Shown: positions 49,934 through 54,466, counted from the first letter of the stretch. The stretch: DNA of 64,000 nt from Acidobacteriota bacterium (GCA_965217775.1 CBDCJH010000002.1:3488001-3552000); one strand, 5' to 3'. Numbers and translations are program-made. The notes: a model not told the origin generated them from the letters alone.

Positions 49934-50877
49934 CCCGCTTTTCCACCGGGGGCTCGGCCTACCCCGCATTTCTCACCAGGTCGCTACGCGTATGATGAAA
50001 AATAATCTGTTTTTGAGCATTTACGCGGAATTTTCCAAGGTTTCTCCGGGACCGACTGCGCGATCGTCACGCCCCCTGATGTAGAGTCGAGGAGAGGCGC
50101 GACGGCGGTAGGTCGGAGGGAGTCGCTGTTGCCGGCGGCTTTCGCCATCATGCCGGTGCCTCAATCTCCACCGTGGCCACGTTTCCTCTCCCCGCTCTCC
50201 GAACCCGCCGTGCGCTTTCCCCGCAGCGGGCTCTCCAGTGGGACCATGCCGCTCGCACACGGGTCGATTCGTCAGCGGCGGGAATGGCGCAACGGCTTCC
50301 GCCGCCCGCAGTCCCCCGCTCCCGCGCGGTCCCACGGTCGTTCCCCTTCGCTTTCGCATGCGGTGGTTCCAGCGCTTCCGAACTCAAACCGGGGTTCCAG
50401 GCCAGGCCACTCCCGGAGTCCTTCGCACTTTCCCTCACCCGTCCTCACCTGAGGCCCCTTCCCTCCACCGGCGTTAGCCGGATTCTCCGGTACTACGGCC
50501 CTCTCCGCCACCCCGACGGCCCAGGCCGGTCCTCGCGGATTCCCGGTTGACGCGTGCCACGTCACCGGCGGGGCTTCCCGTGTTGCCACTCTCTCCCTCC
50601 TATCCGCATGCCATCGCCAATACCCCGGCGGAACCGGACGGTGCTCGCGTCGCTCGCTTCCCGTCCGCTGGCAGCCTTCCCCGTATTCTCGGCGGGTCGG
50701 CTTCCGCATTACCCGTTTCGAGGCCTGCGCAGCGTTTTATGCGCTGTTCCACGTTATGCGCTGTTGCCACCGTATCCCCTTACGCTATCAGAGCCGCACC
50801 GCGATTCAACAGCGCATAACGGGCGATCCTCGGCGATCATGGCGGGATCTTTTTGCCTTCAGGAAGGAGATCCTGTC

Positions 50878-52141
50878 ATGTTTGAATACGAACAAATCTT
50901 CAAGCGAACCGACGCGGTTCAGCGACACCTTGCCGCTCCGCTGCTACGTTCCCGCCTCGCCTACCTCGGCCACCGAGCCGAGCAGGGTGCGAAGCCATCC
51001 ACGCTCCGAGGCATCGCCGCCTTCCAAGTCCAAGCCATCCATTATTTGGAACTGGCCGAGGAAGGCCAGATCACGCCGTCGGAGATTGCAACCGCCGCCG
51101 AGCGGTGGGTCACCCAGCATCCCGCCCGCCGGGGCGGCAATGCCAGCAATGCCCGCCGCGACTTCGTCTCGCGGGTCACCGGCTGGCTGAGCTTCGCGGG
51201 CCGCATGCAGGTTCCGTCGGTCGCGCCCCCTCCGCACTGCCCCGAACTCGTGCAATTCGAGGATTACATGCGGTGGGAACGGGGCTGGTCCGAGGTCACG
51301 ATCCGCTACCGTCTCGGACGGGCGGAGGACTTGCTGCGCCGGTGTTGCCGGGCCCACCGGACACTGGCCGATCTCTCACTCACCACCATCGACCGCGCAC
51401 TCGGCGCCCGCAACTCCAAGGACGGGCGTCCTCGTGCTCGCGCCACGATCCGCAACCACGCGGACGCTCTGCGCGCATTCCTGCGCTTCGCCGCAGTCCG
51501 CGGCTGGTGCCCGCCGGGGTTGGCCGCGGCGATCACGGCTCCCCGTGTCTACAAAGCTGTCACGCTGCCGGCAGGACCCTCCCCAGAAGACCTGCGGCGC
51601 CTGCTCGCGACCACCACGGGCGACCGGCCAGCGGATGTACGCGACCGGGCGCTCCTGCTGACGCTCTCCGTTTACGGACTGCGCGCGGGCGAGGCGCAGG
51701 CGCTGCGGCTGGATGACATCAACTGGGAAGCAGAGACGCTCCGGGTGCGCCGTCCCAAGACGGGGCGCACCACCTGGTTCCCGCTGTCCCGCCGCGTCGG
51801 AGAGGCCTTGGCGCGCTATCTCCGCGAGGCTCGCCCGCGCACCGACACCCGGCAGGTCTTCCTCACGCTCAAGGTCCCGGTCCGACCGCTCGGCGCCTCC
51901 ACGATCAGCAGCGTCGTCCGCAGCCGCATGCGCCGCTGCGGCATCGAATGCGAGCGTCGCGGAGCCCACGCCTTGCGGCATGCCTTTGCGAGAGCGCTTG
52001 CTGGACGAGGGCTTCTCCATGACAGAAATCGGGGACTGCCTCGGGCACCGCAGTCCGGACGCGACCGCGGTGTACGCAAAAGTCGACCTTGCCGGCCTGC
52101 GCCAAGTGGTGGCCGACTTCGACCTGGAGGGACTGGCATGA
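50878..52141 (+). pseudogene. ritA: Tyrosine recombinase RitA, +1 frameshift near 51990
   Basis: YGLRAGE, RPKTG, HALRHAFA in one frame; ERLLDEG..EIGDCLGHRSPDATAVYAKVD*-type tail in another frame ending in ATGA overlap with ritB. Confidence 0.88.
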
Positions 52142-53091
52142 TACTACGCGAGGCGATCGACCAATACATCGTCTGGCAGCGGGCGCGGGGAGCGAGCTTC
52201 GAATCCTCAGCCTACGCGTTGCGCCGCTTCCGCCGTAGCGTCGGCAGCGCCATCGGCTCCGACGAGGTCCGCGCCGACCAGGCTCGCGCCTTCCTGGACG
52301 AGGGCGCGACCTCCGCCAGCAACCGGGCGTTTCTGCACTCCGCACTGAGGGGCTTTTACCGCTACGCCATCGCGCGCGGTCTCGCGACCCACTCGCCCTT
52401 GCCGCCGCAGCCTCCGCAGGCCTCCCCGCGCTCGACGCCCTACATTTATTCGCACGATGAGCTGCGCCGCCTGCTGGATGCGACGAAGAGCTACCGGAAA
52501 CGGGTCAACCAGCTGGAGCCGTACACCTTCCGCGCGCTGCTGCTGTTGTTGTACGGAGCCGGCTTGCGCCGTGGCGAGGCGCTCCGCCTCACGCTGGCCG
52601 ATGTCGACCTGCGCACCGCGCTGCTCACCGTTCGCCAGACGAAGTTCGACAAGACTCGCTACGTGCCCCTTGCCCCGCAACTCGCACGAGCGATGCAGCG
52701 ATACGCCGCCCAACGAAAGGCGGCGGGCGCTCCGCAAGCAGGCGAGGCGCCGTTCTTCGCCAACCGCGACGGCACGCCGCTGGCGGCCCGAACCGTCAGC
52801 AACGCCTTCGCTCGACTGCGGCAGGCGGCCGGCGTGGTCCGCGGGAACGCAGCGCGCTATCAACCGCGCCTGCACGATCTGCGCCACTCGTTCGCCGTGC
52901 ACCGACTGACCGCTTGGCACCGCCAGGGAAAGGATGCGCAACGCCTGCTGCCGCCGCTGTCCACCTACTTGGGCCACTCCAGCGTCGCCGCCACCCAAGT
53001 CTACCTCGACCTGACTCCCGAACTGCTGCGGGCGGCCGCGTCGCGGTTCCAGCGCTACGCGGCCAGCGGGAATGGAGGCCGCCATGACTGA
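52138..53091 (+). CDS. ritB: Tyrosine recombinase RitB
   Basis: PYIYS, GLRRGEA, TKFDK.R, PRLHDLRHSFAV, LSTYLGH...TQVYL. Confidence 0.92.
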   Translation: MILREAIDQYIVWQRARGASFESSAYALRRFRRSVGSAIGSDEVRADQARAFLDEGATSASNRAFLHSALRGFYRYAIARGLATHSPLPPQPPQASPRSTPYIYSHDELRRLLDATKSYRKRVNQLEPYTFRALLLLLYGAGLRRGEALRLTLADVDLRTALLTVRQTKFDKTRYVPLAPQLARAMQRYAAQRKAAGAPQAGEAPFFANRDGTPLAARTVSNAFARLRQAAGVVRGNAARYQPRLHDLRHSFAVHRLTAWHRQGKDAQRLLPPLSTYLGHSSVAATQVYLDLTPELLRAAASRFQRYAASGNGGRHD

Positions 53092-54091
53092 CACACACGC
53101 TCTCGGCCCCTGGCTACGACGCTTTCTCGGGGAGTATCTCGTCAGCGAGCGCAACCTGGCTCGCAATACGCAGCTCAGCTACCGTGACACTTTGTTCCTG
53201 CTGCTTCGCTTCGCCGCCGCCCAGGCGCGCACCCCGGTGGACCGGCTGACTGTCCGCGACCTGGGTGCCGAGCGCGCGTGCGCGTTCTTGGCGCACCTTG
53301 AGCAGGAGCGCGGCTGTTCCCCGCGCACCCGCAACCAGCGGCTCGCCGCCATCCGCTGCTTCGCCCGCTATGTCGCCGGCCGCTGTCCCGAACACGTCGC
53401 CTGGTGTAACCAAGTCCGCGCCATTCCGCTCAAGAAGGCCGTGCCTCCGCCGGTCGGCTACCTGGAAAAGCACGAGATCGACGCCTTACTCGATGCCCCG
53501 GACACTTCCACGCCCCAGGGCCGGCGCGAGCGCGCCCTGCTCTTGTTTCTCTACCACACCGGAGCTCGAGCATCCGAGGCGGCGCAACTGACCGTCAGGA
53601 GCCTGCAACTGGCCGGCAACGGCCCGGGCCACTCGCTCGTCACCTTGCAGGGCAAGGGCGGCAAGACCCGCCTGTGTCCGCTGCTGCCCGCCTCGGCGCG
53701 AGCACTCGCGCCGCTGGTCCAAGGGCGCGCAGCCGGGGAGGCGGTCTTCCTCAGTCGGCTGCGGCGACCGATCACCCGCTCCGGCATCCGCCAACTGGTC
53801 ATCCGTTGTGCGGCGAAAGCCGCCCAGCAGTCACCGTCGCTGGTCGCCAAGAAGGTCGGACCGCACCTGCTGCGCCATACGGCGGCAACACACATGCTGC
53901 GCTCGGGAGTGGATCTCAACACCATCCGAGCTTGGCTAGGCCACGCCCGGATCGACACTACGACTGTCTACGCTGAAATCGATCTTCAGAGGAAGGCGAA
54001 AGCGATCATGCTCTTCGACTCGGACGAACCAGCGCCGGACCCGTCGTATCGCGATGACGAAGGTCTGATGGCCTTCCTGCAATCGTTGTGA
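53084..54091 (+). CDS. ritC: Tyrosine recombinase RitC
   Basis: NT..SYRD, TRNQRLAAI, TGARASE, GKGGK.R, PHLLRHT, WLGHA..TT.VY. Confidence 0.93.
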   Translation: MTDTHALGPWLRRFLGEYLVSERNLARNTQLSYRDTLFLLLRFAAAQARTPVDRLTVRDLGAERACAFLAHLEQERGCSPRTRNQRLAAIRCFARYVAGRCPEHVAWCNQVRAIPLKKAVPPPVGYLEKHEIDALLDAPDTSTPQGRRERALLLFLYHTGARASEAAQLTVRSLQLAGNGPGHSLVTLQGKGGKTRLCPLLPASARALAPLVQGRAAGEAVFLSRLRRPITRSGIRQLVIRCAAKAAQQSPSLVAKKVGPHLLRHTAATHMLRSGVDLNTIRAWLGHARIDTTTVYAEIDLQRKAKAIMLFDSDEPAPDPSYRDDEGLMAFLQSL

Positions 54092-54466
54092 TCGCCAACC
54101 GTTATGCGCTGTTGAATCGCGGCCCCACCCTGATAGCGCAACGGGATACGGCGGCAACAGCGCATAACGTGGAACAGCGCATAAAACGCTTTATGTGCTA
54201 CAGCGCATAAAGCGTTCACAAGTTACGGCCTGCGGATTCGCTGAGTCGCCTAACGCGACCCTTTGGCATCGGAGTGCTTCAGTCCAATTCGTTACCTCCT
54301 TGAACCGCTCCGACTGCTACCGGCTGGAGCGACAGTTGCCGGGCGGGCTTCGCACCCGCTAGGAGAAAGCGCCTTTCCACGGCGCACGAGAAATGCGGGC
54401 TACAAGAACAAAAACTTTTACTACGGGCAGAGGGTTGAAGTCTTCCAGCCTTGTTCGAGCTGAGGA

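Follow-up and report, generated by a model that had tools for sequence, protein, structure and literature searches.

A MITE split by a group II intron that is split by a RIT element in an Acidobacteriota genome, and recurrent RIT insertion sites in other mobile elements

We analysed a 64,000-nucleotide (nt) stretch of one strand of the genome of an Acidobacteriota bacterium (GCA_965217775.1, CBDCJH010000002.1:3488001-3552000; hereafter the window), in which three mobile elements lie one inside another at a single intergenic site. The outermost is a miniature inverted-repeat transposable element (MITE), whose right end is split by a group II intron on the minus strand; domain I of this intron is in turn split by a 3480-bp RIT (recombinase in trio) element. 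A first-pass annotation made from the sequence had read the site as such a nest, and when every joint was checked against uninterrupted copies of the elements, all of its boundaries held. So did its claim that three chemistries are stacked here, which are represented by a DDE-type end of the IS1380 family, by a group II intron whose relatives encode a reverse transcriptase (RT)/maturase, and by three Phage_integrase proteins. The two outer layers are also non-autonomous, as it had proposed, the MITE having no open reading frame (ORF) and the intron being without its protein. The uninterrupted copies on which that annotation had made its reading depend exist: we aligned 18 MITEs, and introns continuous over the RIT point number two in this genome and eight in sister genomes. 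Each layer is an element of a known kind, and the new part concerns RIT integration.

The MITE is bounded on its left by CTAC (49959-49962), and the same 4-mer follows it at 54400-54403. Its left 118 bp (49963-50080, plus strand) consist of the left inverted end (49963-49980, CCCGCATTTCTCACCAGG), the core and the 6 bp with which the right inverted end begins (50075-50080). The outer 12 bp of the right end (GAGAAATGCGGG) lie beyond the intron, at 54388-54399 on the plus strand, and their minus strand is the intron 5' exon, with its intron-binding sites IBS2-IBS1. Once the intron is deleted, these parts form an element of 130 bp with 18-bp inverted ends (49963-49980 against 50075-50080 plus 54388-54399, one mismatch), and this element aligns end to end with the 18 uninterrupted copies in the genome. 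The first-pass annotation had described a 132-bp element with 19-bp inverted ends and flanking TA. The short element with inverted ends stood; the TA is indeed present (49960-49961 and 54401-54402), but it lies inside a 4-bp duplication, CTAC. The 4-bp rule, from which the right copy of CTAC was read together with the sequence, comes from a scan of the genome with the 18-bp end, allowing up to 3 mismatches. This gave 138 matches, among them 39 adjacent inverted pairs, most of which are ~130 or ~240 bp long. The flanking 4-mers were identical in 18 of the 39 pairs, 11 being CTAG and 7 non-palindromic; against these 7, 1000 trials with shuffled partners produced 0.78 such non-palindromic pairs on average and at most 4. 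The element is therefore short, free of ORFs, present in many copies, bounded by inverted ends and flanked by a target duplication, as befits a MITE.

The parent of the MITE was found through its end. Extended to 33 nt (CTAACCCGCATTTCTCACCAG...), this end also bounds a 5.2-kb stretch at C2:2805835-2811074 (locus L039, 1336-6575), in which a DDE_Tnp_1_4 gene is cut in two. An intact homolog in the sister genome G006 encodes a 470-amino-acid (aa) IS1380-family transposase (NF033539, 387 bits; cut-off 180). Since the 33-nt end is common to the MITE and to this transposon, the MITE is an IS1380-family derivative, and a duplication of 4-5 bp is usual for IS1380. A parent of the IS630/Tc1 type was ruled out: the genome is without a PF13358 (DDE_3) match, and the duplication is 4 bp rather than TA. 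The stretch at C2:2805835-2811074 is the only full-length IS1380-family parent of the MITE in the genome, and it is split by a second, intact RIT (RIT#2, with proteins of 416, 316 and 338 aa; the RIT of the window is RIT#1). An element with a 520-aa RNA-guided transposase of the IS110 family (NF033542, 262.7 bits) also lies in MITEs, at C2:1093000-1096000 (L037) and C2:2286000-2288700 (L038). In both it stands at one fixed point, directly after ...CTTCTGAGAAA, in the right end of a MITE copy, one of the long and one of the short variant, so that the MITE end is a pad for a fourth chemistry as well. Some elements of the IS110 family target repeats or the ends of other elements; that of this genome likewise uses the MITE right end, and differs from the layers described here in not being part of the window nest.

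The intron is 827 nt long and spans 50081-54387 on the minus strand, interrupted by the RIT. It begins with GUGCG (54387-54383) and ends with ...CUCUAC at 50081, in agreement with the 5' GUGYG and 3' AY ends of group II introns. Its 5' 171 nt (54217-54387, minus strand) form the first part of domain I and match the Rfam domain I model RF02003 with 89 bits against a threshold of 49 (54218-54361). Its 3' 656 nt (50081-50736, minus strand; intron positions 172-827) were delimited by matches to Rfam RF02005 and RF00029, by the fold and by alignment of copies, and hold the rest of domain I with the loop of exon-binding site 1 (EBS1, ~50684-50692), ORF-free domains II-IV, a canonical domain V (~50200-50233) and an unusually long domain VI of 119 nt, in which an A bulges out 7 nt before the end. 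The homologous introns of two RIT loci described below, L047 and L048, exceed the RF00029 threshold with 47.9 and 44.6 bits.

In the window copy there is no ORF for an RT/maturase in domain IV. Introns of sister genomes are 1994 nt long and have an open frame of 438-487 aa with RVT_1 and GIIM domains and no endonuclease domain; their protein matches TIGR04416 with 325.9 bits (cut-off 300). The window intron matches this longer form over positions 1-456 and 646-827, and the ~190 nt between, which are unmatched in the 1994-nt form, replace ~1357 nt of it. Judged by these matches, the window intron is an ORF-less deletion derivative of the RT-encoding 1994-nt intron. The ORF-less form also occurs in the sister genome G002 and in a second copy of this genome, hence the intron was copied after its ORF had been lost. 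A different group II intron family has 11 copies in the genome (for instance C2:5165138-5168836, L001), with an RT of ~526 aa and two shorter ones (381 and 522 aa); a genome-wide Pfam scan for GIIM gave no match, although this 11-copy family carries RVT_1. Bacterial class D was tried for the window intron and dropped, as the motif quoted for it in the accessible text of PMC4615759 is not visible at the C-terminus of the sister protein (...TASFPWAKA); a search on 'group-II-D1D4' yielded no mapping of Rfam models onto intron classes.

The insertion points of the intron show how it came to lie in a MITE. The sequence CCGCATTTCTC occurs at 71 sites in the genome, 52 of which continue as an intact MITE end and 4 of which run into an intron 5' end: the window copy, an internally deleted one (C2:488716-489341), a remnant of ~100 nt (C2:628163) and an older, truncated copy (C2:3331929). 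An end-like 5' exon finishing ...TTTCTCA likewise precedes 8 of 9 introns in the sister genomes. There, a domain I loop UGAGAAA is the exact complement of the exon UUUCUCA, and the intron stands after ...UUUCUCA; in the window intron the loop reads GAGAAUA and the intron stands one base earlier, after ...UUUCUC, the EBS1-IBS1 pairing being preserved. Two deletion derivatives in this genome share the earlier insertion point (after UUUCUC), and the older copy (C2:3331929), whose loop is UGAGAUA, is inserted after the A. This covariation of loop and insertion point directly supports retrohoming via base pairing, and the one-base shift of EBS1, mirrored at the insertion point, is a clean case of intron retargeting in nature. 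Introns of the family from other phyla, which we met at RIT loci, have CTAG-CCCGCAT.TCTCA-like exons upstream in 3 of 8 cases (L010, L049, L051). The intron remnants at C2:628211-628262 and C2:3331212-3331512 are cut off by oppositely oriented copies of a ~50-nt repeat (CCGGGATGCAGGG...), which may be a further small repeat family.

The RIT occupies 50737-54216 (plus strand; 3480 bp including one copy of a 6-bp core). Its removal had been said to restore intron domain I, and it does so: the minus strand then reads GTGAACGCT/GCGCAGGCCTCG, continuing from GTGAACGCT as GCGCAGG, and uninterrupted introns span that point. These are two other copies in this genome (C2:3331929-3331512 and C2:4646076-4645841) and all eight full-length introns that we aligned from sister genomes. 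The target region in domain I contains GTGAACGCTGCGCAGG. The hexamer AGCGTT stands at both RIT joints (50731-50736, corresponding to intron positions 172-177, and 54211-54216) and once in every uninterrupted intron, so that the joint is ambiguous within 6 bp; AGCGTT looks like a 6-bp crossover core or a duplication.

Between the joints lie three tyrosine recombinase genes that overlap and follow one another as A, B, C, the order also found in other RITs, among them one of a Bryobacterales metagenome-assembled genome (MAG; locus L005), all three with PF00589 matches and with overlaps of 4 and 20 nt. The first, ritA (50878-52141, plus strand), is frameshifted and was delimited by three-frame translation, by tblastn with the intact RitA of L005 and by a Pfam Phage_integrase match on its first 369 aa. 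Then follow ritB (52138-53091, plus strand; E 4.3e-26), whose start overlaps the ritA stop (ATGA), and ritC (53072-54091, plus strand; E 1.3e-31), which overlaps ritB by 20 nt and encodes an N-terminal SAM-like domain (PF02899). The ritA frameshift, of one base, lies near 51988-51993, between the HxLRH box and the region of the catalytic tyrosine (AVYAKV): one frame runs to HALRHAFA, and the next takes over from RLLDEGF...AVYAKV as far as the stop that the start of ritB overlaps, in agreement with tblastn using the L005 protein. The catalytic R..H..R..Y is thus not intact in all three proteins, RitA shifting frame before its tyrosine, while RitB and RitC extend to the end of the Pfam domain. 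Metagenome contigs, which were our population evidence, agree with the window over 51706-52640 with 0 gaps in run X1, and have one base fewer at 51990 or 51994 in runs X5, X6 and X9; one population seems truly to carry the frameshift, which others seem to lack, and owing to it the innermost layer is probably defective too.

The terminal inverted repeats of the RIT are 92 nt long (50731-50822 against 54099-54190), are 91% complementary and contain repeated 11-mers (TTATGCGCTGT). At the ritC end, an additional structure (54185-54216) comprises the inverted core AACGCT (54185-54190), a 20-nt palindrome, TTATGTGCT-AC-AGCGCATAA (54191-54210), and the direct core AGCGTT (54211-54216), so the whole reads flank, AGCGTT, body (with arms TTATGCGCTGT ... 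ACAGCGCATAA), AACGCT, palindrome, AGCGTT, flank. The same arrangement of core, body, inverted core, 20-nt palindrome and core is the common layout of RIT ends elsewhere, with a different hexamer and a matching inverted copy each time: AGGTAG/CTACCT in RIT#2, GCATCC/GGATGC in L010 and L012, TACGTC/GACGTA in L055 and L056, and TGCGAA/TTCGCA in L005, among others. The 6-bp core therefore covaries with the inverted copy inside the RIT. The palindrome is found at the ritA end or at the ritC end, depending on the locus, and in two pairs of oppositely oriented RITs (L047/L048 and L055/L056) it adjoins the same target side in both members. This position would be explained by a circle in which the joined ends made up one long palindrome with two inverted cores, and also by in-place inversion of the RIT body.

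In order to see where related RITs insert, we examined 90 loci, 80 from a search with an alignment of RitC and 10 found earlier; at least 571 RIT relatives were found. The five closest among the matches listed (L047-L051) have RitC identities of 72-81% and come from three other bacterial orders, their sources being one MAG each of the Vicinamibacterales and the Gammaproteobacteria and two of the Paracoccaceae. All five loci adjoin homologous intron sequence at intron positions 172-177, with intron on both sides of the RIT in L047 and L048, the 5' segment only in L049 and L051, and the 3' segment only in L050, and Rfam intron matches above threshold flank the RITs of these loci. L047 and L048 lie in the same Vicinamibacterales genome; their RITs are 100% identical over 365 + 631 + 2485 nt (3481 aligned) and oppositely oriented, and their host introns, one with and one without the ORF region, are 89-92% identical. 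Identical RITs in diverged introns indicate independent, recent insertion into the same site. That the RIT moves as a unit is evident from occupied and empty sites: the empty intron sites, the L047/L048 copies and an empty insertion sequence (IS) site for RIT#2, whose AGGTAG is present at both joints and occurs once in the intact IS of the sister genome G006. The window locus and its relatives thus provide base-resolved occupied and empty RIT sites.

With a high degree of confidence, we attribute the window locus to three sequential, targeted insertions. The order of the insertions and their boundaries are observed here, as are the pairing with its covariation and the recurrence of the target. 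In the first step, the IS1380-derived 130-bp MITE would have transposed into the intergenic site, duplicating CTAC. In the second, the ORF-less intron would have retrohomed on the minus strand into the right inverted end of the MITE; it encodes no endonuclease-type protein itself, and an RT/maturase resembling that of its 1994-nt relatives would have acted on it in trans, with the EBS1 loop GAGAA pairing with UUCUC of the end and the upstream EBS2 with its CCCGCA part. As it is the inverted end that pairs with EBS1 and EBS2, each MITE or IS copy would offer two targets to the intron. In the third, the RIT would have integrated by tyrosine recombination into the 6-bp core, which reads AACGCU on the intron strand and lies in a domain I joining segment. 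This most likely proceeded via a circular form, in which the joined ends would read arm, core, 20-nt palindrome, inverted core, arm; a crossover inside the core that matches the target would then produce the order seen, namely flank, core, body, inverted core, palindrome, core and flank, whichever way the body is turned. Each interrupted host element would lose its mobility, and in the intron the RIT insert in domain I probably prevents folding of the ribozyme. The first-pass annotation had described each element as a safe, multicopy landing pad for the next. The landing itself is upheld, for the intron in the MITE by the EBS1/IBS1 covariation and repeated insertion, and for the RIT in the intron by the shared core and independent insertion; safe applies to the bacterium only and not to the host element, whose copy is probably disabled by insertion at each level.

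Several observations weigh against three targeted insertions. The window intron falls below the Rfam thresholds both with RF02005 (38.2 bits at 50622-50724, threshold 49) and with RF00029 for domains V-VI (34.6 bits at 50081-50235, threshold 40), in the latter case because domain VI is 119 nt long. When this genome was searched by tblastn with the sister protein, no cognate intron protein was found, the best matches, at 31-34% identity, being to the different RT family of the 11 copies mentioned above, and past mobilisation of the intron in trans is accordingly something that we can only infer. A second intact 827-nt intron is not present in the genome, which has overlapping fragments (query positions 1-419 and 302-827). 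It also has only one copy of RIT#1, so the targeting of RIT#1 rests on other genomes. A strict script recovered the palindrome layout in 23 of 43 testable loci but not in the other 20, in some of which it is visible by eye; as automatic calling of the ends had also led us to set aside 32 of 75 complete loci for poor calls, this count is a lower bound and not a clean one. Should run X1 be the source sample, the frameshift of ritA could still be an error of assembly. In the metagenomes, runs X6 and X9 have contigs that pass over exactly 3480 nt (6 letters ambiguous); these have only 20-21 letters on one side and very probably derive from other intron copies; a RIT circle junction or an excision product from the window locus was not found in the contigs listed, an absence that we do not interpret.

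A further point of this kind is that the composites of intron and RIT in the window and in L047 are collinear, 77% identical over 4386 nt and in the same orientation, and that the divergence of RitC (81% identity at the aa level) is similar in size to that of the introns (72-82% at the nt level). Both would be expected if intron and RIT were one inherited unit, a single ancient insertion that was spread by intron mobility or horizontal transfer, the shared site reflecting descent. We consider this unlikely. The RITs of L047 and L048, 100% identical in opposite orientations in introns that are 89-92% identical, one ORF-less and one ORF-bearing, speak against such a history; a 3.5-kb insert in the domain I joiner should cripple the ribozyme; and the introns of the window and of L047 lie in unrelated exons. 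Moreover, another RIT clade, at ~50% identity, uses a different intron site, splitting domain V at GGATGC in four loci (L008, L009, L010 and L012).

RITs of other clades lie in transposase genes. A gene for an IS66 transposase is split at one point, Pfam profile positions 24-26, in L071 and L092 (both flanks or the left flank scanned), and the flanks of this locus type recur in L069, L071, L073 and L075 and, less closely, in L079. Further genes split by RITs are of the IS91 type (Y2_Tnp; L078 and L126), of the ISAzo13 type (L090) and of the rve family (L101). A mobile-element protein adjoins a RIT end in 15 of 60 loci with usable ends, as judged with a panel of nine proteins that leaves RNA-only intron contexts out of the count. 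Pfam gave no family for 10 of 20 open frames flanking RITs; in DNA as rich in G+C as this, many a longest open frame is no real gene. The flank of L052 resembled 23S ribosomal RNA (rRNA) by eye; Rfam found no rRNA there, and this host was dropped.

Such a list could also arise if RITs inserted with low specificity and were seen in mobile elements through the survivorship of harmless insertions. The hosts do make up diverse dispensable DNA (introns, IS66, IS91, ISAzo13, IS1380, an rve-type transposase gene and an rRNA spacer), many RIT loci are unannotated, and a panel protein stands at the RIT end in no more than the 15 loci just mentioned. We nevertheless think this explanation improbable, and a little more so than joint inheritance, as insertion of low specificity would not be expected to place the junction at the identical nucleotide across diverged hosts and phyla, with the domain I core common to the window and its five relatives, nor split an IS66 gene at profile positions 24-26 in L071 and L092 between recurring flanks, nor let the inverted hexamer inside the RIT change with the flank (AGCGTT/AACGCT, AGGTAG/CTACCT, GGATGC/GCATCC, TACGTC/GACGTA).

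Some RIT loci showed features of their own. A third RIT of this genome (C2:1686000-1695000, L043) lies between the end of a 16S rRNA gene and the start of a 23S rRNA gene, in a spacer of ~7 kb. The RIT copy of L048 has taken up two further insertions, of ~450 bp and ~1337 bp (~2216-2664 and 3296-4631), which make a fourth level of nesting. In L057, L061, L065, L067, L081, L083 and L119 the match to ritC extends over ~1495 nt instead of ~1000 nt, which suggests a ~490-nt insertion inside ritC in several unrelated genomes. When L011 (~1398-2281) is compared with L005, one of two copies of a larger repeat in a Bryobacterales MAG has an insert of ~880 bp that matches RF02003 with 50.7 bits and is probably one more ORF-less intron of this type. 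In L005 itself (3560-3660), the RIT lies directly upstream of the start of an ORF on the opposite strand, the N-terminus of which looks, by eye, like an IS21-type helix-turn-helix; an rve panel protein adjoins the RIT end.

As the window belongs to a metagenome-assembled genome, we also considered that the nest might be an artefact in which repeats had been wrongly joined. The contamination estimate of the genome is 7.47%, segments of the intron reach depths in the thousands in metagenomes and are therefore highly repeated there, and no listed contig bridges a junction. Set against this, every joint restores a known element to the base, the joint of RIT and intron recurs in independent assemblies of other organisms, and in four runs, drawn from four studies, the RIT has the same depth as the unique flanks. 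An artefact is thus highly improbable. Two contigs join the flanks of the site without the nest, one of run X9 (604 nt) passing from 49922 to 54460 with 65 other letters between, and one of run X1 from 49920 to 54471 with 30 letters. Related populations are therefore without the nest at this locus, and the intergenic sequence differs, hence there is no clean empty site.

In this genome, all three layers now look inert, because ritA is frameshifted, no cognate intron protein was found and the sole full-length parent IS is split by a RIT; with its MITE end split, its intron ORF-less and split and its ritA frameshifted, the window looks like a set of fossils. What it records is a three-level food chain of selfish elements, in which each invader probably disables the element below and spares the genes of the host. 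Taken with its relatives, it is evidence that RIT lineages are directed at sequences conserved in group II introns and in transposase genes of several phyla. On a wider view, RITs would be dedicated hyperparasites of mobile elements, each lineage having a palindromic attachment region whose core corresponds to a sequence conserved in its one host family; for us the chances that this is right or wrong are about equal. We are equally divided over the extension of this view to the hosts named above (domain I or V of introns, and the transposase genes of IS66, IS91, ISAzo13 and IS1380 elements), in which integration of a circle in either orientation would silence the host element. If true, it would supply the long-missing insertion mechanism and target rule of RITs, which would then be natural killers of introns and insertion sequences, addressed by sequence and crossing phyla with their hosts. 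The question of RIT integration is now directly testable, since the attachment region and the target are defined and the circle junction is predicted, and the step of the RIT into the intron, the wider aim at mobile elements and the deduced end layout are the part for specialists to test.

Each layer can be compared with known systems. In Thermosynechococcus, ORF-less group II introns are reportedly mobilised in trans and introns home into introns, and Dai and Zimmerly (2003) are also said to have described ORF-less introns. The window intron resembles these as a deletion derivative that keeps its ribozyme and depends on the protein of a related intron, and in being nested; it differs in that no cognate protein was found in the genome and that the nested invader is a recombinase element and not an intron. 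For the step of the intron into an inverted end, the behaviour is known, and the closest published case is that of RmInt2 in the inverted repeats of ISRm17 in Sinorhizobium meliloti, beside RmInt1 in ISRm2011-2 (PMC4615759, accessible text, where RmInt2 is placed in bacterial class D). As described there, an endonuclease-less intron homes through EBS/IBS pairing into IS inverted ends, with two targets, one per strand, and related introns shift target through small changes of EBS. Here, by comparison, the end is that of an IS1380-family element and of its MITE derivatives, the intron copy is ORF-less, and class D is unsupported.

For the innermost layer, Tn554, strand-biased circularizing integrative elements and GInts (PMC10214605, in its accessible part) also employ several genes of the tyrosine recombinase type jointly, are specific for their target, have a 6-bp flank or core at the junction and form a circular intermediate. 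RITs differ from these elements in their small size (~3.4 kb, no cargo) and in their symmetric inverted ends with an extra palindrome, and the RITs studied here also in being flanked on either side by one hexamer that occurs a single time in the empty site. RITs were first described in Cupriavidus metallidurans CH34 (PMC3414803, PMC10214605, PMC5737581), and, according to the accessible text of these papers, which date in part from 2012 and 2017, their mobility and mechanism remain to be shown or deduced. Insertion of RIT2 inside Tn6049-type transposons is mentioned in the caption of supplementary Table S5 of PMC3414803 and may be relevant to target choice. Literature linking RITs with introns was not found in a search whose coverage stopped short of Ricker et al. 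2013 (Plasmid 70:226) and of the supplements of PMC3414803. Like the RITs published in these accessible texts, that of the window has adjacent, overlapping ritA, ritB and ritC between inverted repeats, and palindromic ends had been noted for them too. The published ends are of 34 bp, or palindromes of 47-51 bp, in contrast to the 92-nt ends, base-resolved joints and 6-bp core repeat of the window RIT, and, as far as those texts go, the window RIT and its relatives stand apart in having defined conserved sequences of other mobile elements as their targets.

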